Source: Candidatus Woesearchaeota archaeon
GTDB taxonomy: Archaea; Nanobdellota; Nanobdellia; Pacearchaeales; GW2011-AR1
DNA length: 64,000 nucleotides
Reading direction: 5' to 3'
NCBI GenBank assembly: GCA_964545065.1
Contig: CAZJEO010000002.1
Location: 68,879-132,878, forward strand
The notes under the pieces were generated by a model. The model saw nothing but the letters and a program-made list of their open reading frames with translations, searched no databases and was not told the origin of the DNA. Both the position numbers and the translations under genes were made by a program. The stretch's first letter is position 1. Each line of letters opens with the position of its first letter. Below are positions 3,074 to 24,691 of this stretch, in pieces.

Positions 3074-3145
3074 ATGGCATTAAAGGAAGACTTACAAAGA
3101 GTAAATCAAAGATTTTCACTAATCAATTTTTCAAAATGGAATTAA
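3074..3145 (+). CDS. Leader uORF upstream of rpl1 (MALKEDLQRVNQRFSLINFSKWN)
   Basis: ATG preceded by GGAGG at 8-nt spacing. Its first 15 nt (ATGGCATTAAAGGAA) nearly duplicate the rpl1 start (ATGGAATTAAAAGAA at 3136). The stop overlaps the rpl1 start. It shares the GTAAATCAA..AGATTTTCA core with the uORFs at 15739 and 24078. Confidence 0.45.
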   Translation: MALKEDLQRVNQRFSLINFSKWN

Positions 3146-3765
3146 AAGAAAAATTAATCAAAGCATTAACAGAGCTTAGAAAGGAAAAGGAAAGAAAGTT
3201 TGATCAGACAGTGGATTTGATTTTGAATCTGCAAAAGTTTGATCATAAAAGGAATTCTATTAATTTGTCTGTCAATGTTCCGTTTAAAATTAAAGATAAA
3301 AAGATTGCTGGATTTTTTGAAACAAAGAAAGAAGGTGTTGAAACAATTACAAAAGAAATGTTCAAGAAATATTCTGATAAAAATGAAATGAAGAAACTTG
3401 TTAAGAATTTTGATTTTTTTATGGCTGAGGGGAAATTAATGCCAGTTGTTGCTACGACTTTTGGAAGAGTTCTTGGTCCTGTTGGTAAAATGCCGTCTCC
3501 GCAATTGGGTATTTTGATGCATGTTGACGATAAGGAAATTGAAGAATTGAAAAAGAGAATTAATAATAGTGTTAAAATTCGGGCAAAAGAAAGCAGCATT
3601 AAATTGTCTATTGGGAAGCAGAGTATGAAGGATGAGGAAATTATTGAAAATGTTATGGTTGTTTATAATGCAGTTTTGAAAGCTTTGCCAAGAGATAAAG
3701 AGAATATTAAGAATGTTGAAGTTAAATTCACCATGACTAAACCTCAGAAGATAAAGATAAGATGA
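3136..3765 (+). CDS. rpl1: 50S ribosomal protein L1 (uL1)
   Basis: Length and sequence typical of archaeal uL1. Followed by P0 and P1 in the conserved stalk operon order. Confidence 0.9.
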   Translation: MELKEKLIKALTELRKEKERKFDQTVDLILNLQKFDHKRNSINLSVNVPFKIKDKKIAGFFETKKEGVETITKEMFKKYSDKNEMKKLVKNFDFFMAEGKLMPVVATTFGRVLGPVGKMPSPQLGILMHVDDKEIEELKKRINNSVKIRAKESSIKLSIGKQSMKDEEIIENVMVVYNAVLKALPRDKENIKNVEVKFTMTKPQKIKIR

Positions 3766-4937
3766 GCGAACAAAAACAAACACATGTTTCAGAAGCAAAG
3801 AAAGAGATAGTTGGAAACTTAACTGATTTGATAAAAAGTAAGAAAACTGTGTTGATTGCTTCGATAAAAAATATTCCTGCTTCGCAATTTCAAGAGATTG
3901 GTAAAAAGCTTAGAGGAAAAGCTGTTGTTAAAGTTCCAAAAAAGAATTTGATTTTTAGAGCGATTGATGAATCTGGAAATGAAACTGTGAAGAAACTTAA
4001 GGAAAAAATCACAGATAGTGTAGCTGTTTTATTTTCTGATGTTGATGCTTTTGAACTTGCTGCAGATTTATTGAAGAAAAAAAGTCCAGTTAAAGCAAAG
4101 GCTGGTCAAGAAGCTCCAGAAGATATTTCTGTTCCAGCTGGTCCAACTGAATTGCTTCCAGGGCCTGCAATAAGTGAGCTTGGTGCATTGGGAATTCAAG
4201 TTCAAATTGAAAACGGAAAAATAACTATTAGAGAACCAAGAGTGATTGCAAAGCGAGGTGAAGAAATTACTTCGGGTGCTGCAGATGTTATGAACAAGTT
4301 AGACATAAAACCATTCTCAGTAGGTTTTGTTCCTTTGGCTGCGTTTGATTCTCAAGAAAATAAATTATACACAGATATTAATATTGATCAAGAAAAAACA
4401 ATTGAAGAACTTAAAATTGCATTTGGAAAGGCCTTACCTTTTGCTGTAGAGATTGGTTATTCAACTAGTGAGACAATTAGCTTCATGATTGGTAAAGCTG
4501 GGATGCATGAAAAGGCTTTGGAGAAGTTTGCTGGAGTGGAAGAGAAGGAAGAGGAAAAAGTGGAAGAGAAGGAAGGGGAAGAAAAAAATGCTGAAGCTGA
4601 CGCTTCAGGAAATAAAGAAGTAGTTAATGAGGAAATGCAGAGTGAAAGTGGTGAGAGTGATAGTGAAGAGAAAGTTGAAGAAGTGAAGGAAGAAGTTAAT
4701 GAGAAAACGCTGAGTGAAGAGGAAAAGAAAGACGAGAAAGAAAGTGCTGGCGCGGATGAGGGGGAAGTAATTAATCCAGATTCGCAGGGTGATGAGGTTA
4801 AGGTTGAAAGTGAAGAAGTTAAAGATGAGAAACCAGAGGAAACTGAAAATCAAACTCAACAAGGAGAATCTAAAGAAGAATCAAATGACAATCAAACTCC
4901 TGAAGAAAATAAATCTGACGGGGAGGAAAATAAATAA
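3762..4937 (+). CDS. rplP0: Ribosomal stalk protein P0 (uL10) with a long acidic low-complexity C-terminal extension
   Basis: N-terminal uL10 domain and position between L1 and P1. The C-terminal ~130 aa are E/K/S-rich and lack the GLxxLFG tail. Confidence 0.85.
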
Positions 4938-5227
4938 TGGAAAACATATACGCGGCACTTTTGTTGCACAAAGCTGGAAAAGAAGTTAATGAAGAAAACT
5001 TGAAAGCTGTTGTAACTGCTGCTGGTGTGCAAGTGGAGGAATCTCAAATCAAATCACTTGTTGCTAGCTTAAAAGGTGTTGACATTGATAAAGAGCTTGA
5101 AAGCGCAAGTTTAGCTGTGGCTGCTGCTCCTGCTGGAGAGGCTAAAGCTGAAGAAAAACCTGCTGAAAAGCCTAAGGAAGAAAAGAAAGAAGCTGCAGCA
5201 GAAGGCTTATCTGCATTATTCGGTTAA
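4937..5227 (+). CDS. rpl12: Ribosomal stalk protein P1 (aP1/L12)
   Basis: [11 protein letters not shown] start, Ala/Glu/Lys hinge and conserved C-terminal [13 protein letters not shown] overlap with P0. Confidence 0.9.
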
Positions 5228-5328
5228 TTTTAATTTGAATGTGGATAAGTCCGAGCTTCTTTTAGATGTAACTGGGGTGCAATAATTCTCCATAATATTT
5301 ATAACTCTAGATAAATTTTCTTTAATTC

Positions 5329-7314: not shown

Positions 7315-7341
7315 AAACACTTAATTTTTATATAGAATATT

Positions 7342-7422
7342 GCCTCTGTCGCATAATGGTAGTGCACCGGCCTTGAGAGCCGGGCCCTTACGGGCTTCCA
7401 GGTTCGATTCCTGGCGGGGGCG
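7342..7422 (+). tRNA. tRNA-Ser (anticodon UGA)
   Basis: Hand-folded cloverleaf. Acceptor GCCTCTG/CGGGGGC with two G-U pairs; D arm GCAT-AATGGTA-GTGC; anticodon arm CCGGC-CTTGAGA-GCCGG. Long variable hairpin GCCC-TTAC-GGGC; T arm CCAGG-TTCGATT-CCTGG. No encoded CCA. Confidence 0.8.
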
Positions 7423-7425
7423 TTT

Positions 7426-8220: not shown

Positions 8221-8490
8221 TTATATATCAAACAGTCTTTTCAAAAAAGATTTTCTCATGCGAATAGGCCTATCATGTTCATCAATTATCTCATATTTTA
8301 TGACTGGTTTTGTTTTTAGAATTGGAGCTTTTTCTACAAGCTCTTGAGTGACTTTTATCAATGCTTTTTCAACTGCGACTTTAGAGTAACCTTGACTTAT
8401 CAATGCAAATTTAAGAGTGTTAATATCATAACCTTTTTTTAGATTCTTCTTGAGATATTCTACCATCTTTTCCATAGGATTTTCTGTCAT
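8221..8490 (-). CDS. Hypothetical protein (89 aa)
   Basis: Intact ORF, no motif recognised. Confidence 0.35.
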   Translation of the reverse strand: MTENPMEKMVEYLKKNLKKGYDINTLKFALISQGYSKVAVEKALIKVTQELVEKAPILKTKPVIKYEIIDEHDRPIRMRKSFLKRLFDI

Positions 8491-8529
8491 AAAAAAGAAA
8501 GAGGATTTGGATTTAAAAATATAATTGTG

Positions 8530-9756: not shown

Positions 9757-9797
9757 TTATTAAAAGAAGAATCAAAGTTTAAAAATATGATTGTGAA

Positions 9798-11279: not shown

Positions 11280-11323
11280 CTCTTTTCAATAATTAGAAAG
11301 ATTGATTTTTATATTTAACTAGA

Positions 11324-12415: not shown

Positions 12416-12457
12416 TTATTAAAGGTGGTTAAAATTTATAAAGGTTTGTGAATAAGT

Positions 12458-13168: not shown

Positions 13169-13242
13169 TGTGGCGTGAGGGTTAGATAAAATAGTCTAAA
13201 GAGAACATATATATTTATTAAAGAAAAAGGATAAGAAAATTT

Positions 13243-13962: not shown

Positions 13963-13985
13963 GATAATTTCCGCTATATTGAGAA

Positions 13986-14954
13986 ATGCCTACAAGAAAA
14001 AGTCCAAGAAAAGGAAGTTTGCAGTATTGGCCACGGAAAAGGGTCAATAAATTTTTGCCTAGTGTGAACTGGGACGCGATTTCTGAAGGAAAAACAATCA
14101 AGGGATTTATAGCTTACAAAGCTGGAATGGTTTCTGCTTATGTTAAAGATAATACAGAAGATTCAATGACTAAAGGGAAGCACATTGCAATTCCTGCCAC
14201 AATAATTGAATGTCCACCAATGAAGATTTTTTCTGTTAGATTTTACAAAAATGGTTTGGCTGTGAAAGATGTTTTGGCTGAAAATTTAGATAAGGAACTT
14301 AAAAGAAAAGTTAAGCTTCCAAAAGTAAAGAGGAAATTTGAAGAGTTTGTGGCACCCAAGGGTGTACCCTCTAAAGAGGGCAAAGATTATGATAATATTC
14401 ATGTGATTTGTTATTCTGTTGTTAAGAATACTGGGATAAAGAAAACCCCTGATTTGATTGAGCTGGATATTTCTGGAAGCAATGAAGAAAAATTGAATTT
14501 CATTAAAGAAAATATTACTAAAGAAATTTCTGTTTTGGATGTTTTTGAGAAAGACCAACTTGTTGATGCTCGTGGATTGACTACTGGAAGAGGTTTACAA
14601 GGACCTGTTAAAAGATTTGGTATAACTTTGAAAGCAAGCAAATCTGAAAAAGGTAGAAGGCGACCAGGATCTCTTGGTCCGTGGCATCCAGCTCGTGTAA
14701 CATTTAGGGCTCCGCAAGCAGGACAATTAGGAATGTTCACAAGAATTATTTACAATAATAAAATAATTGAAATGGGAAAAAGCGCAGACAAGGAATTAAA
14801 GAACATCAAGAACTTTGGAGATATTAAAACAGATTATGTTATTGTTCAAGGTTCTATTATGGGCCCTTCAAAAAGACAGCTACTTCTTACATCACCATTA
14901 CGAGGAACTAAAAAACAACTCAAGAAAAATTATGAGTTGGTGGATTTAAGATGA
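13986..14954 (+). CDS. rpl3: 50S ribosomal protein L3 (uL3)
   Basis: MPTRKSPRKGSLQYWPRKR start typical of archaeal uL3. First gene of the conserved L3-L4-L23-L2 order. Short repeat insertion at 14352-14385. Confidence 0.95.
   Translation: MPTRKSPRKGSLQYWPRKRVNKFLPSVNWDAISEGKTIKGFIAYKAGMVSAYVKDNTEDSMTKGKHIAIPATIIECPPMKIFSVRFYKNGLAVKDVLAENLDKELKRKVKLPKVKRKFEEFVAPKGVPSKEGKDYDNIHVICYSVVKNTGIKKTPDLIELDISGSNEEKLNFIKENITKEISVLDVFEKDQLVDARGLTTGRGLQGPVKRFGITLKASKSEKGRRRPGSLGPWHPARVTFRAPQAGQLGMFTRIIYNNKIIEMGKSADKELKNIKNFGDIKTDYVIVQGSIMGPSKRQLLLTSPLRGTKKQLKKNYELVDLR
14352..14385 (+). repeat. In-frame palindromic mini-element, short form (inside rpl3; peptide APKGVPSKEGK)
   Basis: GCACCCAAGGGTGTACCCTCTAAAGAGGGCAAAG contains two hairpins, CACCC-AA-GGGTG and CCCTC-TAAA-GAGGG. 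Nearly identical to 19703-19736. Confidence 0.85.
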
Positions 14955-15742
14955 AAACAAAAATATTAGATATAACAGGGAAAGAAAAAGCAAGCATTGA
15001 ACTTGCAGATTGTTTTAGTCAGGCTGTGAGAGAAGATATTGTTCATAAGGTGTTGGAGGCTAAGAAAACTCAACAGCCGTATTCTCCGTCACCTGTAGCA
15101 GGAAAGCAACACGCTGCAAAAGGAAAGATGGTTCATAGAAGACATGTTTGGAGAAGTGGTTATGGTCGTGGAGCAAGTAGGGTGCCAAGAAAGATTTTCT
15201 CAAGACGTGGAAGTCAATTTAATTGGGAAGCTGCAGAAGTTCCATTTGCAAGAGGTGGTATGAGAGCTCATCCTCCAAAAGTTTTAGGACATATTAATAC
15301 TTCAAAAATAAATAAGAGAGAATTAAAGGTTGCATTTATTTCTGCATTGAGTGCAACAGCAAATGACAAATATGTTGTGAAAAAATATCATACTATTGAA
15401 GATGTTAAGAATTTGCCAATTATTATTGAAGGAAAAATAATGTCTTTGAAAACAAAAGATATTCTTGTTTTATTGAAAAATATTCTTGGAGAAAATTTAT
15501 TTAATGTTGCTGTTAGAAAAAAATCTGTGCGAGCGGGAAAAGGAAAAGCTCGAGGAAGAAAATATAAGACAACTGCAGGAATGCTTTTGGTTGTTGGAGA
15601 AAAAGAAGAATTAAAGACAAATGTATTTGATGTTAAAAAAGTAAATAGCCTTGGTGTGACTGATTTGGCTCAAGGTGGTTTAGGAAGATTGGTTGTTTAT
15701 ACTGAAGAAGCAATTAAAGAAATTGGGGAGAAGTTGAAATGA
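14951..15742 (+). CDS. rpl4: 50S ribosomal protein L4 (uL4)
   Basis: Conserved position and uL4-like sequence. ATGA overlap with rpl3. Confidence 0.95.
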   Translation: MKTKILDITGKEKASIELADCFSQAVREDIVHKVLEAKKTQQPYSPSPVAGKQHAAKGKMVHRRHVWRSGYGRGASRVPRKIFSRRGSQFNWEAAEVPFARGGMRAHPPKVLGHINTSKINKRELKVAFISALSATANDKYVVKKYHTIEDVKNLPIIIEGKIMSLKTKDILVLLKNILGENLFNVAVRKKSVRAGKGKARGRKYKTTAGMLLVVGEKEELKTNVFDVKKVNSLGVTDLAQGGLGRLVVYTEEAIKEIGEKLK

Positions 15743-15792
15743 AAGTAAATAGGAAATTTTCATTCATCCGCCATAAGAGGTATGTCGAATGA
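15739..15792 (+). CDS. Leader uORF upstream of rpl23 (MKVNRKFSFIRHKRYVE)
   Basis: Its ATG overlaps the rpl4 stop (ATGA) and its stop overlaps the rpl23 ATG (ATGA). AATGAAA is duplicated at 15738 and 15788. Contains the GTAAAT..AAATTTTCA core and a GAGG 8 nt before rpl23. Confidence 0.45.
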   Translation: MKVNRKFSFIRHKRYVE

Positions 15793-16025
15793 AACCAATA
15801 GTAACTGAAAAAGCTGTTATGATGATTGAAAGAGAAAATGTTTTGACTTTTGAAATTGAAAGAAGAAAAACCAAGACTGAAATTCAAAAAGAAATTGCAG
15901 AGATGTTTGGTGTGAAAATTGAGAAGACACGAACTTTTATCAAGAATGGAAAAAAATATGCTTATGTTAAATTAAATGAAAAGTCGCCTGCGATTGATGT
16001 TGCGACAAAGTTGGGGTTAATTTAA
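15789..16025 (+). CDS. rpl23: 50S ribosomal protein L23 (uL23)
   Basis: 78 aa, conserved position, uL23-like sequence. Confidence 0.9.
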   Translation: MKPIVTEKAVMMIERENVLTFEIERRKTKTEIQKEIAEMFGVKIEKTRTFIKNGKKYAYVKLNEKSPAIDVATKLGLI

Positions 16026-16026
16026 A

Positions 16027-16728
16027 ATGGGGAAACGAATAATTCAACAGGCGCGTGGAAAGGGAAGTAAGACTTACAGAGTTCGAAGAAAGGCTTTTAG
16101 ATTTAAAATAAAATACCCTAGCAAGTTAGAAGGCGAAGGAACTGTTATCAAGTTGCTTAATTCTCCTGGGCATACTGCTCCTTTGGCAAAAGTGAAATAC
16201 AACGAAGGAATTTTCTACATGCCTGCGTTTAAGGGAATGATTGAAGAACAAAAAATAAGTTTTGACAATAAAGAAATAAAAGAAGGAAACATTTTAGAAC
16301 TTAGAAATATTCCAATAAAAACTCGGATTTATAATGTTGAATCGCGACCTAGAGATGGTGGGGTTTTCGTAAGAGGTGCGGGAAATGTTGCAGAAGTTAA
16401 GAGAATTTCAGAAGAAGGAATTTTTGTTGCATTGCCTTCGAAAAAAGAAAGGAAATTTAACCCAAGTTGTAGAGCAACTGTTGGAGTTATTGCTGGTTCA
16501 GGAAGATTAGAAAAGCCAATTGTTAAAGCTGGGAAAAAGCACCACATGAAAAAGGCTAAGAACAAGTTGTGGCCTAGAACATCTGCGGTTAAGATGAATG
16601 CTATTGATCATCCATTTGGTTCTGGTAGAGGAAAAGTTCCAAAAAGCAAAGTTGCTAAGAGGAATGCACCACCAGGAAGAAAGGTTGGATTGATAAGACC
16701 TGCAAGAACAGGTAGGAGAAAAAGATAA
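16027..16728 (+). CDS. rpl2: 50S ribosomal protein L2 (uL2)
   Basis: MGKRIIQQARGKGS start, GHTAPLAKV and the conserved C-terminal basic region. Confidence 0.95.
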   Translation: MGKRIIQQARGKGSKTYRVRRKAFRFKIKYPSKLEGEGTVIKLLNSPGHTAPLAKVKYNEGIFYMPAFKGMIEEQKISFDNKEIKEGNILELRNIPIKTRIYNVESRPRDGGVFVRGAGNVAEVKRISEEGIFVALPSKKERKFNPSCRATVGVIAGSGRLEKPIVKAGKKHHMKKAKNKLWPRTSAVKMNAIDHPFGSGRGKVPKSKVAKRNAPPGRKVGLIRPARTGRRKR

Positions 16729-16958
16729 TGGAATATGGAAAAATGTCTGATGATGAATTGATGAAAGTATACGAAAGTAGATTGGAAAAAGTAAATGAAA
16801 TTAGAAAAAATCAAGGTTTAGGCGATGAAGAACGATTATCAGTAACAAGGGCATCAAGGAACAACTTAATTATTGAAACATTATCTTTAGATTGCGTAAT
16901 CCTGCGTCACCGAGCAGCAGAATCAATTAAATCATCCGCAGAATCATTAAAATATTAA
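16728..16958 (+). CDS. Small lineage-specific ORF (76 aa) intercalated between rpl2 and rps19
   Basis: TAATG overlap with rpl2, 1-nt spacer to rps19. No homology recognised. Confidence 0.5.
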   Translation: MEYGKMSDDELMKVYESRLEKVNEIRKNQGLGDEERLSVTRASRNNLIIETLSLDCVILRHRAAESIKSSAESLKY

Positions 16959-16959
16959 A

Positions 16960-17361
16960 ATGGCAACAGAATTAAAGAAAAAAGAAGCATTGTATAAGGG
17001 AAAGACAATCGAAGAATTGAAGAATTTAGAGACTCGGGAGTTTGCTAATCTTGTTCCTTCTAGATCAAGAAGAACTATTCTTCGACAGTTTAGAGAGATT
17101 GAGGATTTTGTTAATCGGGCAAAGGAAAAATTAGGAAAGAAAAAATCGATAAGAACTCACCAGAGAAACCTTGTTGTTGTTCCGAAGATGGTTGGAATGA
17201 GGATTCAGGTTTACAACGGAAAAGAGTTTGTGGCTATGGAAGTTACAATGGAAATGCTCGGACATAAATTCGGTGAATTTGCACCGACACGAGGAAAAAT
17301 AAAGCACGGAAGTGCAGGAGTGGGAGCTACTAAAGGTTCTAGAGCCAACGCTAAGAAATAA
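16960..17361 (+). CDS. rps19: 30S ribosomal protein S19 (uS19)
   Basis: GHKFGEFAPTR motif and conserved position. Confidence 0.95.
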   Translation: MATELKKKEALYKGKTIEELKNLETREFANLVPSRSRRTILRQFREIEDFVNRAKEKLGKKKSIRTHQRNLVVVPKMVGMRIQVYNGKEFVAMEVTMEMLGHKFGEFAPTRGKIKHGSAGVGATKGSRANAKK

Positions 17362-17362
17362 A

Positions 17363-18070
17363 ATGACAGAAAAAGATTATAATCCAGAACAGAAAAATAA
17401 AAAAGTGATGAACACGCAAAAGGTAGTTGGAAAAGTAAATGAATCTCCTGTAAAAAAGGAAACTGCAAAAATTGCGCCAGAGGAAAAGAAAATAGCTTCG
17501 CCTGGAGACGAAGGAGATAAAGAAGTAATTAATAACAAAGACAGCGGCGCTATTAAGACACCCAAGGGTGTACACCAAGGAGGTGCGAGTACCTCTTCGA
17601 GGCCTCGAGAAACTTCTGGAGAAGTTTCTACTAGGGGCAAAAAACAACCTGTAACTTCTAAAGTAAAAAAGAGTGAAGCAATTGTTAATGGAGTTGGTTT
17701 GCCTCTTTCAACAAAAACATCTGTTGCTATTTGTAAATTTATTCGTGGAAAAAGCATTCCAAAAGCAATTGCAAATTTAGAGCAAGTTATTGCTAAGAAA
17801 AAAGCTGTTCCAATGAAAGGCGAAATTCCTCATAGAAAAGGAAAAATTATGTCGGGAAGATTCCCAAAAAATGCTGCAGAATATTTTATTAAATTATTAA
17901 AGAATTTGCAAGCAAATGCAAACGCTAATGGTTTGGACGAGCCAGTTGTTGCTGAAGCTATGGCAAATATTGCGTCTCAACCTTATGGAAGATTTGGAAG
18001 AGTTCGAAGAAAGAGAACTCATGTTTTACTTAAGGCTAAAGACAAGAAAATGAAGGGAGGAAACAAATAA
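17363..18070 (+). CDS. rpl22: 50S ribosomal protein L22 (uL22) with a ~95-aa N-terminal extension
   Basis: ATG 1 nt after the rps19 stop. The conserved uL22 core starts near GLPLSTKTSVAICKFIRGK. The extension contains the long repeat element. Confidence 0.85.
   Translation: MTEKDYNPEQKNKKVMNTQKVVGKVNESPVKKETAKIAPEEKKIASPGDEGDKEVINNKDSGAIKTPKGVHQGGASTSSRPRETSGEVSTRGKKQPVTSKVKKSEAIVNGVGLPLSTKTSVAICKFIRGKSIPKAIANLEQVIAKKKAVPMKGEIPHRKGKIMSGRFPKNAAEYFIKLLKNLQANANANGLDEPVVAEAMANIASQPYGRFGRVRRKRTHVLLKAKDKKMKGGNK
17558..17641 (+). repeat. In-frame palindromic mini-element, long form (rpl22 N-terminal extension; TPKGVHQGGASTSSRPRETSGEVSTRGK)
   Basis: ACACCCAAGGGTGTACACCAAGGAGGTGCGAGTACCTCTTCGAGGCCTCGAGAAACTTCTGGAGAAGTTTCTACTAGGGGCAAA. 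Inner stem AGAAACTTCT/AGAAGTTTCT. Confidence 0.9.
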
Positions 18071-18834
18071 TGGAAGAAAGAAATACAGTTAAATTTAGAA
18101 AAGATGAATTTGCTATCAAGGAATATATTAAAAAGCAACTTGGAAAAGGTAAGGTTAGCAAAGTTAGGATTGAATACACTCCTATTGGGGAGAAGATAAT
18201 TGTTTCAACAAGCAAGCCTGGTTTGGTTATTGGGAGAAAAGGAGAGAGAATTGAAGAGTTGACAATTATTTTGAAAAAGAAGTTCAAGCTTGAGAATCCG
18301 ATAGTTGAGATTGATGAGATTTTAAACCCAGAGTTTGATGCTCAGATTATTGCTGATGAGATTGCGCTTGGGTTAGAGAGGAGTGGGCCGTTGAAGTTTA
18401 AAGTTATTGCTTATCGGACATTGCAGAAAATAATGGGTGCAGGAGCTCTTGGAGCTGAGATAGTTATTGGGGGAAAATTGCCAGGAGCAAGGGCAAAATC
18501 CTGGAGGTTTGCTCAAGGATATTTAAAGAAAACAGGAGATAGTGCAAAGATTGTTGACAGAGCGAAATCAACTGCGCAAACAAAACCAGGAACTGTTGGA
18601 ATTAAAGTTAGTATACTTTCACCAGATGCTGTCTTTAAGGATAAAATAAAGATTGATGATGAAGTTATTGCAAAATTAAAGAATGCTGCAGAGGAAGTTG
18701 CGCCCAAGGGTGTACCCCGAGATATTTCTAAAGAAATATCTACCGAGGGCAAAGAGCAACAGAAAAAGAAAATAGTAAAAACTAAACTGGTATCTAAAGG
18801 TGTACCTTCTAAGGAAGGCAAGGCGGCGAAATAA
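18070..18834 (+). CDS. rps3: 30S ribosomal protein S3 (uS3)
   Basis: KH domain (LVIGRKGERIEEL) and conserved position. The C-terminal tail holds two repeat copies. Confidence 0.95.
   Translation: MEERNTVKFRKDEFAIKEYIKKQLGKGKVSKVRIEYTPIGEKIIVSTSKPGLVIGRKGERIEELTIILKKKFKLENPIVEIDEILNPEFDAQIIADEIALGLERSGPLKFKVIAYRTLQKIMGAGALGAEIVIGGKLPGARAKSWRFAQGYLKKTGDSAKIVDRAKSTAQTKPGTVGIKVSILSPDAVFKDKIKIDDEVIAKLKNAAEEVAPKGVPRDISKEISTEGKEQQKKKIVKTKLVSKGVPSKEGKAAK
18700..18754 (+). repeat. In-frame palindromic mini-element, medium form (rps3 tail; APKGVPRDISKEISTEGK)
   Basis: GCGCCCAAGGGTGTACCCCGAGATATTTCTAAAGAAATATCTACCGAGGGCAAAG. Inner stem GATATTTCT/AGAAATATC. Confidence 0.85.
18793..18823 (+). repeat. 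In-frame palindromic mini-element, short form, diverged (rps3 tail; SKGVPSKEGK)
   Basis: TCTAAAGGTGTACCTTCTAAGGAAGGCAAGG. The stem is CCTTC/GAAGG instead of CCCTC/GAGGG, a paired compensatory change. Confidence 0.65.
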
Positions 18835-18835
18835 A

Positions 18836-19048
18836 ATGGCAATACTTAAAACAAAAGAAATTAGAAACATGAGCGTTGGAGATAGAGAAAAGAAAATGAA
18901 AGAATTGAAAATGGAATTGGTTAAATCTCGATCTGGAAATTCAAAGACAGGTAACAAAACAAAAGAGATTAAAAGGATTATTGCAAAAATACTTACACTC
19001 AACAAAGCCGAGGAGAAATCACCTCAGGAGGTTGAGAAAAACAAATAA
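18836..19048 (+). CDS. rpl29: 50S ribosomal protein L29 (uL29)
   Basis: MAILKTKEIRNMS..ELKMEL is typical uL29. ATG 1 nt after the rps3 stop. Confidence 0.9.
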   Translation: MAILKTKEIRNMSVGDREKKMKELKMELVKSRSGNSKTGNKTKEIKRIIAKILTLNKAEEKSPQEVEKNK

Positions 19049-19049
19049 C

Positions 19050-19346
19050 ATGGAAATATGTCCGAAATGTGGTTTGCCTGAGCAAGCCTGCGTGTGTGAG
19101 CAGATTGTGAAAAGTTCACAAAGGATAAAGGTAACAACAGACCGTAAAAGATACGGTAAGATCGTCACTGTTGTTTCTGGATTTGGAGAGGGGATAGACG
19201 TGAAGAAGATCGCAAAAGCTCTGAAAAACGAGCTTGCTTGTGGGGGAACCTCCAAGGACAATGTGATCGAGCTTCAAGGCGACCACAGGAAGAAGATGAC
19301 AGGCCTGTTGGTTGAGTTAGGGTTTGAAGAAAACTCCATCGATTGA
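19050..19346 (+). CDS. Translation initiation factor SUI1 (aIF1)
   Basis: N-terminal CPKCGLPEQACVC zinc knuckle and the SUI1 core (GKIVTVVSGF..ELACGGT). G+C visibly higher than neighbouring genes. Confidence 0.85.
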   Translation: MEICPKCGLPEQACVCEQIVKSSQRIKVTTDRKRYGKIVTVVSGFGEGIDVKKIAKALKNELACGGTSKDNVIELQGDHRKKMTGLLVELGFEENSID

Positions 19347-19363
19347 ACACACAAAGAAACAAA

Positions 19364-19756
19364 ATGGAAAAAATAGAAGAAAAGAAACAGATAGAGAAAG
19401 AAACAGCTAAGACAGCTGGAGCTGGATGTGAAGATAAGAATTGTCATGTTCATGGTAGCTTGAAAGTTCGTGGAAAAATCTTTGAAGGAGAAGTTATCAA
19501 GAAATTCCCTAAGAGAGTTGTTATTCAATTTGAAAGAATGATTTATGTTAGAAAATATGAAAGATACAAAAAAAGTAAGACAAAGATTCACGCAAGACTT
19601 CAAGATTGTATGAAGGATGATGTTCAAGTTGGAGATATGATTAGGATTCAAGAATGTCGACCTTTGAGTAAGATTATACATTTTATAGTGCTAGGGAAAA
19701 TCACACCCAAAGGTGTACCCTCTAAAGAGGGCAAAGCCAAGGAGGAAAAGAAATGA
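19364..19756 (+). CDS. rps17: 30S ribosomal protein S17 (uS17)
   Basis: CEDKNCHVHG and RIQECRPLSK motifs. First ATG in the ORF. The tail carries the short repeat. Confidence 0.9.
   Translation: MEKIEEKKQIEKETAKTAGAGCEDKNCHVHGSLKVRGKIFEGEVIKKFPKRVVIQFERMIYVRKYERYKKSKTKIHARLQDCMKDDVQVGDMIRIQECRPLSKIIHFIVLGKITPKGVPSKEGKAKEEKK
19703..19736 (+). repeat. In-frame palindromic mini-element, short form (rps17 tail; TPKGVPSKEGK)
   Basis: ACACCCAAAGGTGTACCCTCTAAAGAGGGCAAAG, near-identical to the rpl3 copy. Confidence 0.85.
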
Positions 19757-20154
19757 AAGCAATAAGTGCAAAGATAACACCAGGAGTGAGTATAGGCTCA
19801 ACATTAATTGCAGCCAGTAATAGTGGAGCAAAGATTGTGCGGTTGGTTGGAGTAAAGAGAGCTAAGGCCAAGAAGGGTCACCATGTTTCAGCGAAAGTGG
19901 CTGACTTGGTTAAAGTTTCTGTAAGAAAAGGTGTGCCAGATATGAAAGGTCATGTGTTTGACGCAATTGTTGTAAGACAGAGAAAATCATACAGAAGACT
20001 TAATGGAGAAAGAATTGCATTTGAAGATAATGCTGTTGCGATTTTGAAAGATGATAAAGGAAATCCCAAGGGAACTCAGATTAAAGGACCTGTTGCAAGG
20101 GAGGTGCAAGAGCGATGGCCGCAAGTTGCGAAGATTGCTAGTGTGGTAGTTTAA
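19753..20154 (+). CDS. rpl14: 50S ribosomal protein L14 (uL14)
   Basis: Typical uL14 sequence. ATGA overlap with rps17. Confidence 0.95.
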   Translation: MKAISAKITPGVSIGSTLIAASNSGAKIVRLVGVKRAKAKKGHHVSAKVADLVKVSVRKGVPDMKGHVFDAIVVRQRKSYRRLNGERIAFEDNAVAILKDDKGNPKGTQIKGPVAREVQERWPQVAKIASVVV

Positions 20155-20155
20155 G

Positions 20156-20401
20156 ATGAAAGATAGAAAGACAGTATTATTAGAAAGGGCAGCAGGAATT
20201 GATTTTCTTGCAAGCGTAATCGGTGCTTTTGTGGGGGGAGAATATTTAGAAAGAGCAAAAAACCTGTATGAAAAAATAACAATAAAATATGAGGAAGAAA
20301 TAGGGGAAAAATGGCCAATTCAGTGGAGATTAAATGAAATAAGAAAACTGGAAGCAGAAGAATTTCCTTACCCAATAGAAACACATTCAACACTTTTATA
20401 A
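20156..20401 (+). CDS. Small lineage-specific ORF (81 aa) intercalated between rpl14 and rpl24
   Basis: 1-nt spacers on both sides. No homology recognised. Confidence 0.5.
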   Translation: MKDRKTVLLERAAGIDFLASVIGAFVGGEYLERAKNLYEKITIKYEEEIGEKWPIQWRLNEIRKLEAEEFPYPIETHSTLL

Positions 20402-20402
20402 A

Positions 20403-20918
20403 ATGAAACAAAAATTTAGTAAAGCATGGAAAGCAAGTTCACAGCCTCGGAAGCAGAGGAAATATGCAGCGAATGCTCCGATACATTTGAAGCGAAAACT
20501 TTTGAGTGTTAATCTTGCGAAAGATTTGAGAACAAGACATAAAAAGAAAAATATTCCTGTGCGAAAAGGAGATACTATTTTAGTTATGCGTGGGAAATTC
20601 AAAGGGAAAAAAGGAAAAGTAAATGAAGTTAAAACAAAAATGGAGAAAATTTATGTTGAAGGTATTCAAGTGAAAAAGCGAGATGGTACAACAGTTAATG
20701 TTCCGTTGAAGGCATCGAATTTGCAGATTATTGAATTGTATATGGAAGATGGGAAAAGAATTAAAAGGATGCAGGAAGAAAAGAAAGAGAGCAAGGGAAA
20801 AAAGAATGCTGAATCTAAAGATTCAGAAGATAAAAAAGATAATAAGAAAGACAGCGGGGTGGTGGATAAAGTGAAAAAGCAAGATAATAAAAAGGAAAAT
20901 GCGGAGGTAAAGAAATAA
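20403..20918 (+). CDS. rpl24: 50S ribosomal protein L24 (uL24) with a K/E-rich C-terminal extension
   Basis: KOW motif VRKGDTILVMRGKFKGKKGKV and conserved position. Confidence 0.9.
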   Translation: MKQKFSKAWKASSQPRKQRKYAANAPIHLKRKLLSVNLAKDLRTRHKKKNIPVRKGDTILVMRGKFKGKKGKVNEVKTKMEKIYVEGIQVKKRDGTTVNVPLKASNLQIIELYMEDGKRIKRMQEEKKESKGKKNAESKDSEDKKDNKKDSGVVDKVKKQDNKKENAEVKK

Positions 20919-21145
20919 TGAAAACAGAAACAAGAAATTTAATTAGAAATTGTAGAAAACTAAAAAAAGTGCATAAAATAGCTAAAAAATGTGTTTCTTT
21001 AAATGATTTGCAATTTTCTTTAAAGATTTTCGAAACAAACTTGGATCGACTTGGAAAAAGAGTACCCGAAGATCCCAGAGCAGGTCGTGCATTTAGGAAA
21101 TATCAAGCATTTTATAATAGAAAATGTGCGGAGGTTTATCGATAA
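20918..21145 (+). CDS. Small lineage-specific ORF (75 aa) intercalated between rpl24 and rps4e
   Basis: TAATG overlaps at both ends. Basic helical protein, no homology recognised. Confidence 0.5.
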   Translation: MKTETRNLIRNCRKLKKVHKIAKKCVSLNDLQFSLKIFETNLDRLGKRVPEDPRAGRAFRKYQAFYNRKCAEVYR

Positions 21146-21789
21146 TGGCATACTTAAAACGACAAAAAGTTCCGAAGAATTGGCCTATTCATAGAAAAGG
21201 CACAACTTATGTAGTTAGGCCTGGTTTTAGTATTGGGAAGGGAATTCCTATTTTGATTATTTTGCGGGATATTTTGAAAGTTGCAGCAAATCGAAGAGAA
21301 GCTAAAAGAATAATTCACGCGAAACAAGTTTTATTGAATAATAAACCTGTAATGGATGACAAGCACAATGTTTTGTTACTTGATTGTATAAGTATTGTTC
21401 CATCAAATAAATTCTATAGAATGAATTTATCAGATAAAGGAAAATTCAAACTTGAAGAAGTTAAAGCTGAGGAAGCAGGAAGAAAAGTTTCTAAGATAGT
21501 AAATAAGAAAACTTTGAAAGGAAAAAAGACTCAATTGAATTTGAGTGATGGGAGAAATTTCTTGTCTGATTTGAAATGTAATGTTAATGATTCTGTTTTG
21601 ATTAATCTTTTAGAAAAGAAATTAGAAAAATGTATCCCATTACAAGAAAAAGCAAAGGTTCTTGTTTTTGAAGGAAAACACGCTGGTGAAAAAGGTGTAA
21701 TCGATAAGCTTAAAGACAAAACAGCAGAGATAAAGATGGAAGATAGAACAGTTGATATTTTAATTAAACAGTTGATGGTGGTTGAATAA
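21145..21789 (+). CDS. rps4e: 30S ribosomal protein S4e (eS4)
   Basis: MAYLKRQKVPKNWPIHRKGTTYVVRP is the typical eS4 N-terminus. Confidence 0.9.
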   Translation: MAYLKRQKVPKNWPIHRKGTTYVVRPGFSIGKGIPILIILRDILKVAANRREAKRIIHAKQVLLNNKPVMDDKHNVLLLDCISIVPSNKFYRMNLSDKGKFKLEEVKAEEAGRKVSKIVNKKTLKGKKTQLNLSDGRNFLSDLKCNVNDSVLINLLEKKLEKCIPLQEKAKVLVFEGKHAGEKGVIDKLKDKTAEIKMEDRTVDILIKQLMVVE

Positions 21790-22102
21790 AATGGATGAAA
21801 CAAAAATAAGAAGGCAATTGGGAGTAGAACAACAACTTGTTGATATGGCAAAGTCAGCAGCTGAAGCTAGTTGTTATCAAGAAACTGCAGAATTATTAGA
21901 TAAGGCGAAAAGGTGTAAGGATGTAGTTTATGGATTGTTGATGGAGGCTGAACCAGATGAAAACGGGCTTGCTAGGATGACATGTGAAGTTCCCTCAAAC
22001 ATGGAAAGGACAAGAAACCATCCTTTTGCTAAGGATACTCAAAGAATCTATTCAGAAGGAGAAAAATATTGTATGCATAAACTTCAAAGGATATGTAATT
22101 AA
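21782..22102 (+). CDS. Small lineage-specific ORF (106 aa, several Cys) intercalated between rps4e and rpl5
   Basis: 8-nt overlap with rps4e, 1-nt spacer to the rpl5 ORF. No homology recognised. Confidence 0.5.
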   Translation: MNKMDETKIRRQLGVEQQLVDMAKSAAEASCYQETAELLDKAKRCKDVVYGLLMEAEPDENGLARMTCEVPSNMERTRNHPFAKDTQRIYSEGEKYCMHKLQRICN

Positions 22103-22103
22103 A

Positions 22104-22769
22104 ATGACAGATAAAGAAGAAGAAACTAAAATGGCAGAAGAAACAGCACCCAAGGGTGTACACCAAGGAGGCGCGAGTACCTCTTCGCCAAGTAGGTCTG
22201 AAAGAAGGCCCCTAGACATTTCTCAAGAAATGTCTACTGAGGGCAAAGAAAAACAAATGGCATCCAAGGAGAATCCAATGCGAGAAATAAAAATCGAGAA
22301 GATTGTTCTTAGCATAGGTGGGATTGGAGAAGACTTGGAAAAGGGTGTTAAGCTTTTGAAACTTATTACTGGAAGAGTTCCTGCTAAAAAAAGATCAAAC
22401 AAAAGAATTCCAACTTTGAATGTTCGACCGAAACTTGAAATTGGAGCAATGGTTACAATCAGGCAAAACATAAAAGAGTTTTTGGAAAAAATGCTTGTTG
22501 CTATTGATAATACTTTGAAGAGAAAACAAATAAGTGAAAATAATTTTTCATTTGGAATCCATGAATATATTGAGATTCCAGGAGTAGAATATCAGAGAGA
22601 ACTTGGAATCATGGGATTTGATGTTACTGTTGTTTTCAAAAGAGCAGGACGAAGAGTTAAGTTGAGAAAAGTGAAGCGAGGAAAAGTTTCAAAGCGACAA
22701 GTTATAAGCAAAGAAGAAATAATTAAATTCATGGAAGAAAATTTTAATACGGAGTTTGTGGGGAAATGA
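22104..22769 (+). CDS. rpl5: 50S ribosomal protein L5 (uL5); alternative start at 22257
   Basis: The conserved uL5 core begins at MASKENPMREIKIEKIVLSIG (ATG 22257). The in-frame upstream 51 codons from ATG 22104 consist mostly of the long repeat element. Confidence 0.85.
   Translation: MTDKEEETKMAEETAPKGVHQGGASTSSPSRSERRPLDISQEMSTEGKEKQMASKENPMREIKIEKIVLSIGGIGEDLEKGVKLLKLITGRVPAKKRSNKRIPTLNVRPKLEIGAMVTIRQNIKEFLEKMLVAIDNTLKRKQISENNFSFGIHEYIEIPGVEYQRELGIMGFDVTVVFKRAGRRVKLRKVKRGKVSKRQVISKEEIIKFMEENFNTEFVGK
22146..22248 (+). repeat. In-frame palindromic mini-element, long form with an extra 18-nt module (5' of the rpl5 core)
   Basis: GCACCCAAGGGTGTACACCAAGGAGGCGCGAGTACCTCTTCG[CCAAGTAGGTCTGAAAGA]AGGCCCCTAGACATTTCTCAAGAAATGTCTACTGAGGGCAAAG. 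Inner stem TAGACATTTCT/AGAAATGTCTA. Confidence 0.9.
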
Positions 22770-23467
22770 TGATGAAGATTGCAGAAAAAATATTTGAGAA
22801 ATATCCTGAATTTGAAGTGGGGGTTATTATAGCGAGAGATTTGGATAATTCAAAATATAATGAAGAAATCCAAGGATTAATAAGGGGAATTGAAAAAGAA
22901 ACTAGGGAAAAAATAGATCCAGAAGAAGTTACTCAGAATCCAACTATTGCTAAGTGGAGAGAAATATATAAATCATTTGGAGCAAAGCCAAGCGATTATA
23001 GAAATTCTGTTGAAGCATTAATTAAAAGGGTCCTTAAAACAGAATTATATAAAATAAATCCTCTTGTGGATTTGTATAATTATATTTCTATAAAATATAT
23101 AATGACTGCTGGCGGAGAAGATATTGACAAAATAGAAGGTGACTTAATATTAGATTTTGCTAATGGAGATGAAGAGTTTATTCCGCTTGGAGAAGAAGAG
23201 AACAAATCTCCTTGGGAAGGAGAAGTTGTGTATAAAGATGATAAGGGCGCTATTTGTAGATGTTGGAATTGGAGAGAGGGCGATAGAACAAAACTTACAG
23301 AAGACACTAAAAATGCTGTGTTAGTTATTGAGAACATAATTCCAGAAGATAATGAAAAGTTAAAAGAAGCTTTAGAAGAACTTAAATCATTAATTGAAAA
23401 ATATTGTGGAGCAAAATGTGAAACTCATATTTTAAATAAAGAAAATTCAGAGGTGGATTTAAAATGA
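22766..23467 (+). CDS. Free-standing B3/B4 (PheRS-beta editing-like, tRNA-binding) domain protein
   Basis: NPLVDLYNYISIKYIMTAGGEDIDKIEG resembles the B3_4 domain signature. ATGA overlaps with rpl5 and rps14. Confidence 0.55.
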   Translation: MMMKIAEKIFEKYPEFEVGVIIARDLDNSKYNEEIQGLIRGIEKETREKIDPEEVTQNPTIAKWREIYKSFGAKPSDYRNSVEALIKRVLKTELYKINPLVDLYNYISIKYIMTAGGEDIDKIEGDLILDFANGDEEFIPLGEEENKSPWEGEVVYKDDKGAICRCWNWREGDRTKLTEDTKNAVLVIENIIPEDNEKLKEALEELKSLIEKYCGAKCETHILNKENSEVDLK

Positions 23468-23694
23468 CTGCAAGTGATTGGAAAAAGGTTTTGAAACAGA
23501 TACGGAACAAACCAGCGAAAGCTGCACGGTTTTTGAAACACAACAAGCCGAAAGAAAGGAAGATTGGAATCGCTGTGAATAAATGCGAGAGGTGTGGAAG
23601 ATTTGGCGCTCACATAAAATCATACGGATTAAATTTATGCCGACACTGTTTTCGAGAAATCGCGACAGAAATAGGTTTTCAAAAATATAGTTAA
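23464..23694 (+). CDS. rps14: 30S ribosomal protein S14 (uS14, zinc form)
   Basis: CERCGR...CRHCFRE zinc-ribbon motif and conserved position. Confidence 0.9.
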   Translation: MTASDWKKVLKQIRNKPAKAARFLKHNKPKERKIGIAVNKCERCGRFGAHIKSYGLNLCRHCFREIATEIGFQKYS

Positions 23695-23695
23695 A

Positions 23696-24076
23696 ATGAG
23701 TCAAGATATAGTCGCTGATGCGTTGAACATGTTACGAAATGCAAAGAAAGCTAGAAAGGATGTTGTTGAAATTAAGAAAATTTCAGATTTATTAATCGAG
23801 ATTTTAAAAATAATGAAACAGAAAGGCGCGATAAAGAAATACAAGATTGATGCTAAGAATAGAAGCATTGAAGTTACAATTGGAGACTTGTCAGAATGTA
23901 AAGCGATTAAGCCAAGGTTTACTGTTAAGAAAGAAGATGTTGAAAAGTACGTGAGACGATATTTGCCTGCGAGAAATTTGGGAACAATGGTTGTTTCTAC
24001 TAACAAAGGTTTGATGACTCACACAGAAGCTCAAGAAGAAAAAACGGGGGGATGCTTGATTGCATTTTTTTATTAA
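23696..24076 (+). CDS. rps8: 30S ribosomal protein S8 (uS8)
   Basis: DIVADALNMLRNA start, GGCLIAFFY end and conserved position. Confidence 0.95.
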   Translation: MSQDIVADALNMLRNAKKARKDVVEIKKISDLLIEILKIMKQKGAIKKYKIDAKNRSIEVTIGDLSECKAIKPRFTVKKEDVEKYVRRYLPARNLGTMVVSTNKGLMTHTEAQEEKTGGCLIAFFY

Positions 24077-24077
24077 A

Positions 24078-24152
24078 ATGAAAAAAGTAAATCAACCAAG
24101 TAGGTCTGAAGGAAGATTTTCATGTTTTCCTTTTTGGAGGAACCGAAAATGA
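24078..24152 (+). CDS. Leader uORF upstream of rpl6 (MKKVNQPSRSEGRFSCFPFWRNRK)
   Basis: ATG 1 nt after the rps8 stop. AAAATGAAAAAAG is duplicated at 24075-24087 and 24146-24158. Its stop overlaps the rpl6 ATG (ATGA), and GGAGG lies 8 nt before rpl6. Contains the GTAAATCAA..AGATTTTCA core plus the 18-nt module. Confidence 0.45.
   Translation: MKKVNQPSRSEGRFSCFPFWRNRK
24096..24115 (+). repeat. 18-nt module CCAAGTAGGTCTGAAGGA(AG), second copy (inside the rpl6 leader uORF)
   Basis: Matches 22188-22208 (CCAAGTAGGTCTGAAAGAAGG) with one mismatch. It is absent from the otherwise homologous leaders at 3101 and 15745. Confidence 0.7.
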
Positions 24153-24691
24153 AAAAAGAAATATTTCAAACAATAGAAATTCCTGAGGGAGTTGAAGCGA
24201 ATTTAGAAAAAGATATTCTTACTGTGAAGGGACCTGAAGGAGAGAATAAGAGAGAATTTGATATTACGAATCTTTCACTTGAGAAAAAAGATAATCAAAT
24301 AATTGTTGGGAATGCTAAGGCGACAAAAAAAGAAAAGAAAAGAATTGGAACTCTTGCTGCACATATTAAGAATATGATTAAAGGTGTTCAGGAAAAGTTT
24401 GAATACAAGTTGAAAATTTGTTTTAGCCATTTCCCTATGACTGCTGAGATGCAAGGAAAGGAAGTTATAATCAAGAATTTCTTAGGAGAAAAAATTCCTA
24501 GAAAGGTTGCGATTCGAGATGGCGCTGAAGTTAAGATAGAGAAAGATATTATTACTGTTACTTCTGTGGATAAAGAAATCGCTGGACAAGTTGCGGCTAA
24601 TTTTGAAACAGCTACAAAGGTTCCTTTGAAAGATAGAAGAGTTTTCCAAGATGGAATTTATATTACAAATAAAGCAGGGAGGGAAATGTAA
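24149..24691 (+). CDS. rpl6: 50S ribosomal protein L6 (uL6)
   Basis: MKKEIFQTIEIPEGV is the typical uL6 start. SD-like GGAGG upstream. The longer track ORF from 24122 is less likely. Confidence 0.9.
   Translation: MKKEIFQTIEIPEGVEANLEKDILTVKGPEGENKREFDITNLSLEKKDNQIIVGNAKATKKEKKRIGTLAAHIKNMIKGVQEKFEYKLKICFSHFPMTAEMQGKEVIIKNFLGEKIPRKVAIRDGAEVKIEKDIITVTSVDKEIAGQVAANFETATKVPLKDRRVFQDGIYITNKAGREM

Follow-up and report, generated by a model that had tools for sequence, protein, structure and literature searches.

Why do three junctions in otherwise tightly packed ribosomal protein (r-protein) operons hold short open reading frames (ORFs) that run up to the start of the next gene? The question is raised by 64,000 nucleotides (nt) of a Candidatus Woesearchaeota archaeon (assembly GCA_964545065.1, contig CAZJEO010000002.1, positions 68,879 to 132,878), the whole of which is called the window below. 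Its G + C content is approximately 33%, and nearly all of its r-protein junctions overlap or have a 1-nt spacer, as an initial annotation of the stretch had stated. The exceptions are the leader of the L1 gene and the L4-L23 and S8-L6 junctions (sites 1, 2, and 3), at which Pfam confirmed the identities of the host genes and each of which carries an upstream ORF (uORF1, uORF2, and uORF3; Table 1). The three sites are copies of one dispersed, apparently undescribed family of Woesearchaeota and Pacearchaeota (DPANN archaea). The explanation that we favor, with a probability of roughly two in three, is a dispersed start-site mini-cistron cassette that is mobile or spreads by gene conversion and would be tolerated through termination-reinitiation coupling with its host gene.

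Three leader ORFs in the window

uORF1 starts 7 nt past a GGAGGT Shine-Dalgarno (SD) motif, consists of nine former L1 codons followed by a degenerate core, and ends 10 nt inside L1. uORF2 overlaps the L4 stop at one end and the L23 start at the other, by ATGA in both cases, and uORF3 starts 1 nt past the S8 stop and ends in an ATGA overlap on the L6 start. The latter is a long variant with kin in L011, L052, L032, and L027 (three-digit labels denote related genomes throughout). The sites, their sequences, and the overlap of each uORF end with the real ATG were as first described.

A core shared by the three sites, GTAAAT..ATTTTCA, had also been reported. Scanned as GTAAATN{2,32}ATTTTCA, it occurs in the 64-kb window at these sites only, against a chance expectation of 0.76, and three sites were reached in 1 of 100 shuffles. 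Taken alone, the motif count within the window is suggestive at marginal significance only and is not decisive. A DNA profile built from relatives recovered site 1 independently (E = 0.002-0.016), and no further cassette copy was found in the window with the same profile.

Several other readings of the sites were tried and rejected. The upstream ATGs do not open longer conserved proteins: homologues of L23, L6, and L1 (those of L1 are abundant) align from residue 1, the tblastn matches of L23 and L6 do so in nearly all relatives, and the junctions of relatives are tight. An exact look-up of the L23 protein gave no record. A frameshift fusion of uORF and gene was discarded by inspection, as the cassette consensus has stops in the frame of the gene and lacks a slippery site. 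Translational bypass of the T4 gene 60 type would require take-off at CAA AGA-GTA and landing at ATC AAA-GCA at site 1, where the take-off codon has no in-frame match and is not followed by a stop; at sites 2 and 3, its product would equal that of normal initiation. The 62-nt excision is incompatible with the boundaries of spliceosome-like GT..AG splicing. For a bulge-helix-bulge intron, the folds contained no such helix and there was no consensus structure, although no dedicated search for this intron type was run. Finally, an r-protein autoregulatory leader that mimics rRNA was rejected, since RNAalifold gave 0 pairs, Rfam gave no match at any of the three sites, and the same element precedes more than 25 genes.

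A dispersed family with filled and empty sites

Species-representative genomes were scanned with L14, which yielded 80 loci from metagenome-assembled genomes of Woesearchaeota, Pacearchaeota, and 'Nanoarchaeota'. Approximately 52 cassette copies (profile matches plus looser members) were found in approximately 35 of these 80 related genomes. When a peptide profile from the relatives was run against 17,691 ATG-initiated short ORFs on both strands, approximately 48 matched at E < 0.06, all on the gene strand, and the best opposite-strand match had E = 0.26. All copies have the orientation of the following gene. An exact-pattern scan of metagenome contigs found at least 120 further stretches; viral contigs (IMG/VR) gave 0 matches to the cassette pattern, the mini-ORF peptides had no match in Pfam or NCBIfam, and full-text searches of the literature found no description of the cassette. 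The core is strictly associated with start codons, contrary to the random placement that would have refuted the initial reading. It is this comparative support, not the motif count in the window, that is decisive for a single element family.

The initial proposal of a dispersed cassette was upheld by these numbers, whereas its restriction to rpl1, rpl23, and rpl6 was not. At least 13 junctions of the r-protein operon are occupied in addition to the L1 leader: S17-L14 (17 copies, including 3 with the upstream ORF unidentified), L4-L23, L5-S14, L24-S4e, L3-L4, S8-L6, L19e-L18, S5-L30, S3-L29, L22-S3, S4e-L5, and L18-S5 are among them. Approximately half of the metagenome copies lie at r-protein genes (this and the other metagenome fractions below refer to the matches listed). 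A Pfam scan of 49 unidentified downstream ORFs returned phosphoglycerate mutase (6), nucleotidyl transferases (3), ERCC4 (3), L35Ae (3), S8e (2), class II aminoacyl-tRNA synthetases (2), PolD DP2, ScpB, and others, and PIG-L is also among these heterogeneous targets. One conserved head sequence is found at more than 25 different gene starts, and cassettes can flank a gene on both sides (RNase_T in L091 and PIG-L in L170).

The family has multiple copies and a patchy presence, with sites that are filled in some relatives and empty in others. The L4-L23 junction is tight (-11 to +14 nt) in 40 of the 68 relatives that have both genes, and its remaining gaps measure 38-70 nt (9 relatives), 117-157 nt (3), and 480-912 nt (16). 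S8-L6 is tight by the same limits in 49 of 68, with gaps of 42-69 nt in 10 and of 207-623 nt in 9, several of which were shown to hold other ORFs. Mini-ORFs of the window type occupy the mid-size spacers, for example MKANRKFPFIRHRRYVE (L005, L4-L23), MKVNQPSRSEGRFSFIQKKCGGYFE (L032, L4-L23), and MKANQPSRSERRFSFIRHRRHVK (L011, S8-L6).

The closest relative, L005, has a copy at L4-L23 that is identical to that of the window at 51 of 54 nt and a different ORF at S8-L6. Orthologous copies show short-term purifying selection, being 94% identical compared with 73-77% of third positions in the adjacent gene. In the cassette of the window and L005, all 18 third positions are identical versus 73% in L23, and for the close pair L017/L051 the 94% cassette identity stands against 77% of the third positions of the adjacent gene. 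L084 and L046 have L14 proteins with 91% identity, and their cassettes at the same junction are different variants. Similarity between copies at different junctions of one genome was 0.713, compared with 0.657 between genomes (permutation p = 0.001) and 0.680 for same-junction copies between genomes. Tandem pairs in L014 (5186-5313, with identical peptides), L033 (2120-2235), and L126 (6452-6560)/L164 (1468-1580) show local duplication via direct repeats at the cassette ends.

Larger genes have also entered these junctions. In L003 (18529-19149), L091, L100, L161, and L028, the L4-L23 junction holds an inserted gene for an RNase_T-like (DEDD) 3'-5' exonuclease, joined by ATGA overlaps on either side, and those of the 480-912-nt inserts that were examined contain it (L003, L091, and L100/L161). 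The gaps of L080 (157 nt) and L041 (117 nt) hold apparent internally deleted relics with an IVVDIERSGL N-terminus and a LTAECFSRIVYGK C-terminus. The long inserts in 16 of 68 relatives and these deleted versions would suit a reading of the spacers as decayed remains of larger inserted genes, such as the exonuclease. However, no similarity was detected between the cassette and either end of the RNase_T gene, and one head is present at more than 25 gene starts. Because the cassette flanks intact RNase_T genes (on both sides in L091, and between RNase_T and L23 in L028, L100, and L161), an origin as an RNase_T relic is excluded, and we consider the decay reading scarcely credible.

Insertion with duplication of the host start

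The initial suggestion of an insertion with target duplication was supported at site 1. Six relatives have L1 without the insert (L205/L206, 85% identical; L207, L208, L209, and L003, 78-88% identical). In L205/L206, the 5' untranslated region (UTR) is nearly identical to that of the window and L1 starts with ATGGCACTTAAAGAAGATTTACAAAAA (MALKEDLQK), which is the head of uORF1; therefore, the window and L002 gained a core of approximately 35 nt and a second copy of the first nine L1 codons. uORF1 is common to the window and L002, whose L1 is 87% identical, and is absent from six other relatives. The upstream ATG had been placed at the ancestral start position, with which both the L1 start of L205/L206 and the tightness of most L4-L23 and S8-L6 junctions agree.

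Duplicated gene starts had been claimed at all three sites. The duplication is real at site 1, where 20 of 28 nt agree and insert-free relatives begin L1 with the upstream copy, and at site 3, where 13 nt are identical. At site 2, the repeat AATGAAA (7 nt) is weak: 11 of the 63 long ORFs in the window (17%) begin in this way, so that the duplication there is unconvincing by itself. Across the family, the 5' end of the mini-ORF shares a mean prefix of 7.0 nt with its own downstream gene and 5.9 nt with the genes of other copies, and 0 of 5000 permutations reached the observed value. The mini-ORF of L020 begins MEEN and its own S3 MEER, those of the window and L052 begin ATGAAAAAAG as L6 does, and a copy in L014 shares 15 nt with L4. 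The apparent duplication measures approximately 6-7 nt at L23, 10-15 nt at L14, L4, and L6, and 27-28 nt at L1. Together with the recurrent left junction AAAG-(C/T)AAAT, this spread of approximately 6-28 nt would be more in keeping with microhomology-mediated template switching or gene conversion than with a classical transposase.

The L1 leader has features of its own. Between its TATA-like box, TTTATAAACCC, and L1 lies a conserved 5' UTR of approximately 85 nt, which is also present in L002, L205-L209, and L003 and has two sequence variants common among relatives; it may be the L1 autoregulatory site known from methanogens. Public L1 calls (L207 401-1066, protein P0012, 221 amino acids; other entries of 219-222 amino acids) are extended by approximately 12 codons and begin at an in-frame ATG in the conserved 5' UTR, and the true start in those entries is likely the SD-preceded ATGGCT further downstream.

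Cassette anatomy and coupling architecture

The consensus of the cassette is aaaATGAAAGCAAAT-NNN-ARA-TTTTCATTCATYC-(0-12 nt)-GGAGGT-(7-9 nt)-ATGA. An ATG in the native initiation context of the host gene is followed by a 31-nt head conserved as nucleotides (ATGAAAGCAAAT-NNN-ARA-TTTTCATTCATYC, peptide MKANQRFSFI), a variable spacer, an SD, and a stop that overlaps the host ATG. The mini-ORF has 15-25 codons.

Among the 100 distinct metagenome copies with a recognizable downstream gene, 93 overlap its start by ATGA (binomial against 1/3, 4e-36) over nine different lengths from 48 to 90 nt. The same overlap was found in 43 of 51 genome copies, and lengths over both sets range from 48 to 108 nt. 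An SD-like 4-mer is present in the tail of 90% of genome copies and 84% of metagenome copies, compared with 18% of random windows, and is spaced 8-10 nt from the host ATG. The tail peptide types GGYFE and RHRRYVE are the same GGAGGT in two reading frames; thus, the tail is conserved as nucleotides. As for the other end, an upstream gene was detected for 48 genome copies, 35 of which overlap its stop by ATGA.

Metagenome copies with no upstream gene within 12 nt (lone copies) differ from coupled ones. A TATA-like hexamer is centered 22-34 nt upstream of the mini-ORF ATG in 60% of lone versus 11% of coupled copies among the matches listed, with a peak at -28 to -25 in the lone set, and an upstream SD-like motif is found in 21% versus 56%. 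The spacing of the hexamer agrees with the distance to the archaeal transcription start, so lone mini-ORFs look like leaderless first cistrons, and their layout fits a 5'-terminal position. The mini-ORF ATG stands where the host start would be in three contexts, namely operon-internal, leaderless, and SD-led at L1. Inspection of the aligned copies by eye revealed no conserved TATA-like element at a steady distance inside the cassette, as an internal promoter would have. With respect to the termination-reinitiation proposed at the outset, the architecture agrees with it, and from this architecture we infer the coupling itself. Insertion and dispersed leader, which had been offered as alternatives, are supported as two aspects of one element.

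Constraint on the head and the peptide

The head is constrained beyond its amino acids. Third codon positions 9, 12, 18, 21, 24, and 27 carry 1.6-1.8 bits, above first positions 7, 22, and 25. Codon 9 encodes F, L, C, I, Y, or V and retains C as its third base, and the common synonyms GCT, TCT, AGT, and TTT never occur at head codons 3, 8, and 9.

This conservation, which includes synonymous sites, would be expected if the functional unit were a cis-acting nucleic-acid signal and the ORF secondary, for example, a start-masking hairpin, a protein or small-RNA site, or a DNA recombination site. Complementarity points the same way: AAUGAAAG can pair with UUUUCAUU in 87% of alignment cells, compared with 32-59% in slid controls, and a segment termed block B is complementary to the downstream start region (77%). 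However, RNAalifold found 0 consensus pairs, two hand-drawn helices had 0 and 2 double changes and did not exceed shuffles, and single-sequence folds were no better than shuffles (z +1.2 to -1.5). There was no Rfam match, S-to-P variants and site 1 break the helix, and an incidental ORF would not hold its frame and the ATGA in 93% of the listed copies at nine lengths. We therefore regard a signal of this kind as improbable.

A regulon-wide regulatory leader peptide, whose nascent chain or codons would sense a signal and tune reinitiation by stalling or termination kinetics, is the strongest of the rivals, although still unlikely; it may coexist with the favored explanation. Residues M1, N4, F7, and I10 are invariant or nearly so across copies, r-protein genes are enriched (approximately half of the metagenome copies listed), orthologous copies are under purifying selection, and in the first nine codons of uORF1 all four differences between the window and L002 are synonymous. 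To our knowledge, arrest peptides are conserved at the C-terminal end, near the peptidyl-transferase center. In the cassette, conservation is N-terminal, and the last 6-9 residues are variable and stand in two frames relative to the SD. Third positions are conserved at least as strongly as first positions, and codons 3, 8, and 9 retain their third base although the encoded residue differs between copies. Accordingly, neither C-terminal conservation nor amino-acid-level constraint was found in the cassette alignment. Presence is patchy, and the targets are mixed (phosphoglycerate mutase, ERCC4, PolD, and PIG-L).

The conserved N-terminal decapeptide, the basic character of the peptides, and their predicted co-expression with r-proteins could also indicate a trans-acting micro-protein, such as a small basic ribosome-associated peptide. 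We give this very little credence: operons contain 0 to 4 or more copies, the tails differ in sequence, length (15-35 amino acids), and frame, and the constraint is at the nucleotide level. In addition, many related genomes have no operon copy, and Pfam and NCBIfam contain no match.

The long variant with an optional 18-nt module in its head occurs at four different junctions. The module, CCAAGTAGGTCTGAA(A/G)GA with the peptide PSRSE-G/R, was found at 22188-22205 and in copy 3 of the window (2 matches against a chance expectation of 0.01), as well as in L011 (10500) and L032 (1900 and 5538). The match at 22188-22205 is within an unrelated G + C-rich repeat, in the N-terminal extension of L5. 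Sharing of the module suggests either a still smaller insertion unit or a common insertion process acting on both families.

Proposed explanation and significance

At the level of sequence comparison, the family, its anatomy, the maintenance of frame, overlaps, and SD, the polarity of insertion, and the differences in presence and absence are established. According to the mechanism that we propose, a cassette would arise within the first codons of a host gene, with duplication of the host start (ATG plus 1-9 codons). The upstream start copy would keep the native initiation context, which is an SD, an ATGA overlap, or the 5' end of a leaderless mRNA, and would now open a mini-ORF of 15-25 codons. 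This mini-ORF would pass the head and the variable spacer, cross a new SD 8-10 nt ahead of the host ATG, and stop in an ATGA overlap on that ATG. Ribosomes finishing the mini-ORF would then reinitiate on the host gene with the aid of the SD. Copies may spread by transposition-like insertion or by microhomology and gene conversion. An element that lands in the start of an essential gene with coupled translation needs such an architecture to persist, and the architecture fits a beneficial coupler and a well-adapted selfish element alike.

Several points weigh against this explanation. The nucleotide-level constraint on the head includes conservation at synonymous sites, which a simple coupler would not need, and something other than coupling is constraining it; the metagenome set is uninformative on head variation, as the head was fixed by the search pattern. 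Site 1 is an exception to the rule of a tail SD, since none lies ahead of the L1 ATG, and the uORF of L002 stops 5 nt before the L1 ATG and does not overlap it, so that coupling there would rest on reinitiation alone. Translation of the mini-ORF and its coupling to the host gene are putative for what are uncultivated hosts. With regard to mobility, no target duplication of fixed length was identified in the observed range of approximately 6-28 nt, and no mobilizing enzyme was identified. Terminal inverted repeats were not found either; the sole inverted repeat is internal to the head (AAATGAAAG/TTTTCATT), and the 3' end is an SD plus spacer. The excess of within-genome similarity is a modest 0.06.

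A more far-reaching version, which we offer tentatively and at slightly less than even odds, is that the cassette is a miniature mobile element of a new class, which would home to start sites, duplicate the start codon, and bring its own coupler so that essential genes such as those of r-proteins outlive the insertion, with a head that may serve as a handle for a trans-acting factor, either a mobilizing enzyme or a global translational regulator. If a regulator reads the head, the cassette would define a regulon of dozens of genes in DPANN archaea. The cassette would also demonstrate that packed and coupled operons, including the universally conserved S10/spc, can host a repeat element whose own coupling module spares them harm. 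For annotation, the cassette would be a marker for hundreds of unannotated, putatively translated short ORFs in DPANN genomes and would account for recurrent 40-70-nt "spacers" and mis-called starts in their r-protein operons. It is also a candidate portable expression part for archaeal synthetic biology. The questions that it raises concern the efficiency of archaeal termination-reinitiation, the reader of the 31-nt sequence, and the origin of start-duplicating insertions.

Other features of the window and its relatives

The coordinates of the cassettes and of neighboring features are collected in Table 1.

Table 1. Cassette copies and other features of the window, numbered from its first nucleotide.
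Position	Strand	Feature	Remark
3062-3067	+	GGAGGT SD of the original L1 start, now serving uORF1	Insert-free L205/L206 have the same SD and 5' UTR directly before the L1 ATG
3074-3145	+	Cassette copy 1: uORF1, MALKEDLQRVNQRFSLINFSKWN and stop, 23 codons	Before L1 (ATG 3136); TAA at 3143-3145
3074-3101	+	L1 start duplication, upstream copy (ATGGCATTAAAGGAAGACTTACAAAGAG); ancestral 5' end of L1	Matches the L1 start of L205/L206 (MALKEDLQK)
3101-3124	+	Core head GTAAATCAAAGATTTTCACTAATC of copy 1	Motif scan and DNA profile
3136-3163	+	L1 start duplication, downstream copy; now the start of L1, no own SD	20/28 nt identical to 3074-3101
15739-15792	+	Cassette copy 2: uORF2, MKVNRKFSFIRHKRYVE and stop, 17 codons	L4-L23; peptide profile E = 4e-11
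15776-15781	+	AGAGGT, SD-like, inside uORF2	7 nt ahead of the L23 ATG (15789)
24078-24152	+	Cassette copy 3: uORF3, MKKVNQPSRSEGRFSCFPFWRNRK and stop, 24 codons, long variant	S8-L6
24096-24113	+	Optional 18-nt module CCAAGTAGGTCTGAAGGA (peptide PSRSEG)	Inserted in the head of copy 3
24136-24141	+	GGAGGA SD inside uORF3	7 nt ahead of the L6 ATG (24149)
3136-5227		L1-P0-P1 genes	
13986 to 29554		S10/spc-type operon	L3 (13986) to SecY (29554)
2975-3073		TATA-like box and 5' UTR ahead of L1	
7342-7422		tRNA gene	Rfam, 55 bits; between a helicase-like ORF and the next gene
17547-17649, 22135-22255, 25127-25229, 18692-18759, 1418-1505		G + C-rich dispersed repeat	In frame inside r-protein genes
14353-14385, 18791-18823, 19704-19736, 27864-27895, 31176-31211		Shorter units of the G + C-rich repeat	
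16728-16958		Small ORF, 76 amino acids	S10/spc operon; no Pfam match
20156-20401		Small ORF, 81 amino acids	S10/spc operon; no Pfam match
20918-21145		Small ORF, 75 amino acids	S10/spc operon; no Pfam match
21782-22102		Small ORF, 106 amino acids	S10/spc operon; no Pfam match
22766-23467		B3_4-domain protein, 233 amino acids	Between L5 and S14
18981-19346		ORF that looks like SUI1/eIF1, by eye only	Between L29 and S17

Operon junctions of this lineage take many insertions. Four small ORFs and a B3_4-domain protein lie in the S10/spc operon of the window, and L003 has a 75-amino-acid ORF between L3 and L4.

A second family of dispersed repeats, which is G + C-rich, consists of small palindromes (CACCCAAGGGTG; CCCTCTAAAGAGGG; GACATTTCTCAAGAAATGTC), in which compensatory changes distinguish the copies. 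The encoded extensions, of the type ..APKGVHQGGASTSS..EISTEGK.., are mostly C-terminal in the upstream gene or N-terminal in the downstream gene, just ahead of the next start, and the repeat ends with GGGGCAAA, which is SD-like in look. The repeat is nearly absent from relatives (5 matches in the window, compared with 0 in L005 and a single match in each of L030 and L060) and resembles the Rickettsia palindromic elements.

Comparison with known systems

Experiments in archaea and bacteria have shown that neighboring cistrons are coupled through the 4-nt ATGA overlap (Huber et al., 2019, PMC6728339; PMC10666635). Most cassettes likewise have ATGA at both ends and an SD before the downstream start, and lone copies resemble transcripts with a 5'-terminal upstream AUG followed by an SD-led gene (PMC4965119). 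Unlike the upstream member of an ATGA-coupled gene pair, the upstream 'gene' is here a portable unit of 15-25 codons placed before many unrelated genes, with coupling predicted from its layout.

L1, S8, and L4 are classical translational repressors, and autoregulatory mRNA leaders of r-proteins mimic rRNA. The cassette is located in r-protein operons beside the genes of these proteins, but it differs from such leaders in having no conserved structure or Rfam match and in occupying at least 13 junctions as well as non-ribosomal genes.

Rickettsia palindromic elements, REP/BIME, Correia elements, and MITEs are short, non-autonomous, multi-copy, and patchy, and they leave host expression undisturbed. 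The cassette is also short, non-autonomous, multi-copy, and patchy, and its copies within a genome are alike. In contrast to these repeats, it lacks terminal inverted repeats and a palindromic body, keeps a strict orientation to the gene, targets the start codon, and forms a separate ORF, complete with SD and stop-start overlap, whereas those repeats are read in frame or left untranslated.

The leader peptides known to us (trpL/pheL, ErmCL, SecM, and TnaC) each serve one operon or gene family and act by attenuation or stalling through conserved regulatory codons or a C-terminal arrest motif. The cassette ORF, if translated, shares with them a position immediately upstream and a length that fits the ribosomal exit tunnel, and differs in that one sequence stands before dozens of unrelated genes and has a variable C-terminus.

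The closest parallel in layout is with the leader cistrons of bicistronic design, which are reportedly due to Mutalik and colleagues in 2013. Both consist of a short, portable leader cistron with its own initiation signal, the target SD inside its coding part, and a stop overlapping the target start. The designed leader cistron (described in PMC5995908) is an engineered bacterial part, whereas the cassette is a repeat of natural, archaeal origin that has a head conserved as nucleotides and shows signs of mobility, and it would be the natural counterpart of that design if our explanation is true. As far as we know, the combination of a dispersed miniature repeat with a coupled leader cistron is new, each part being known separately.

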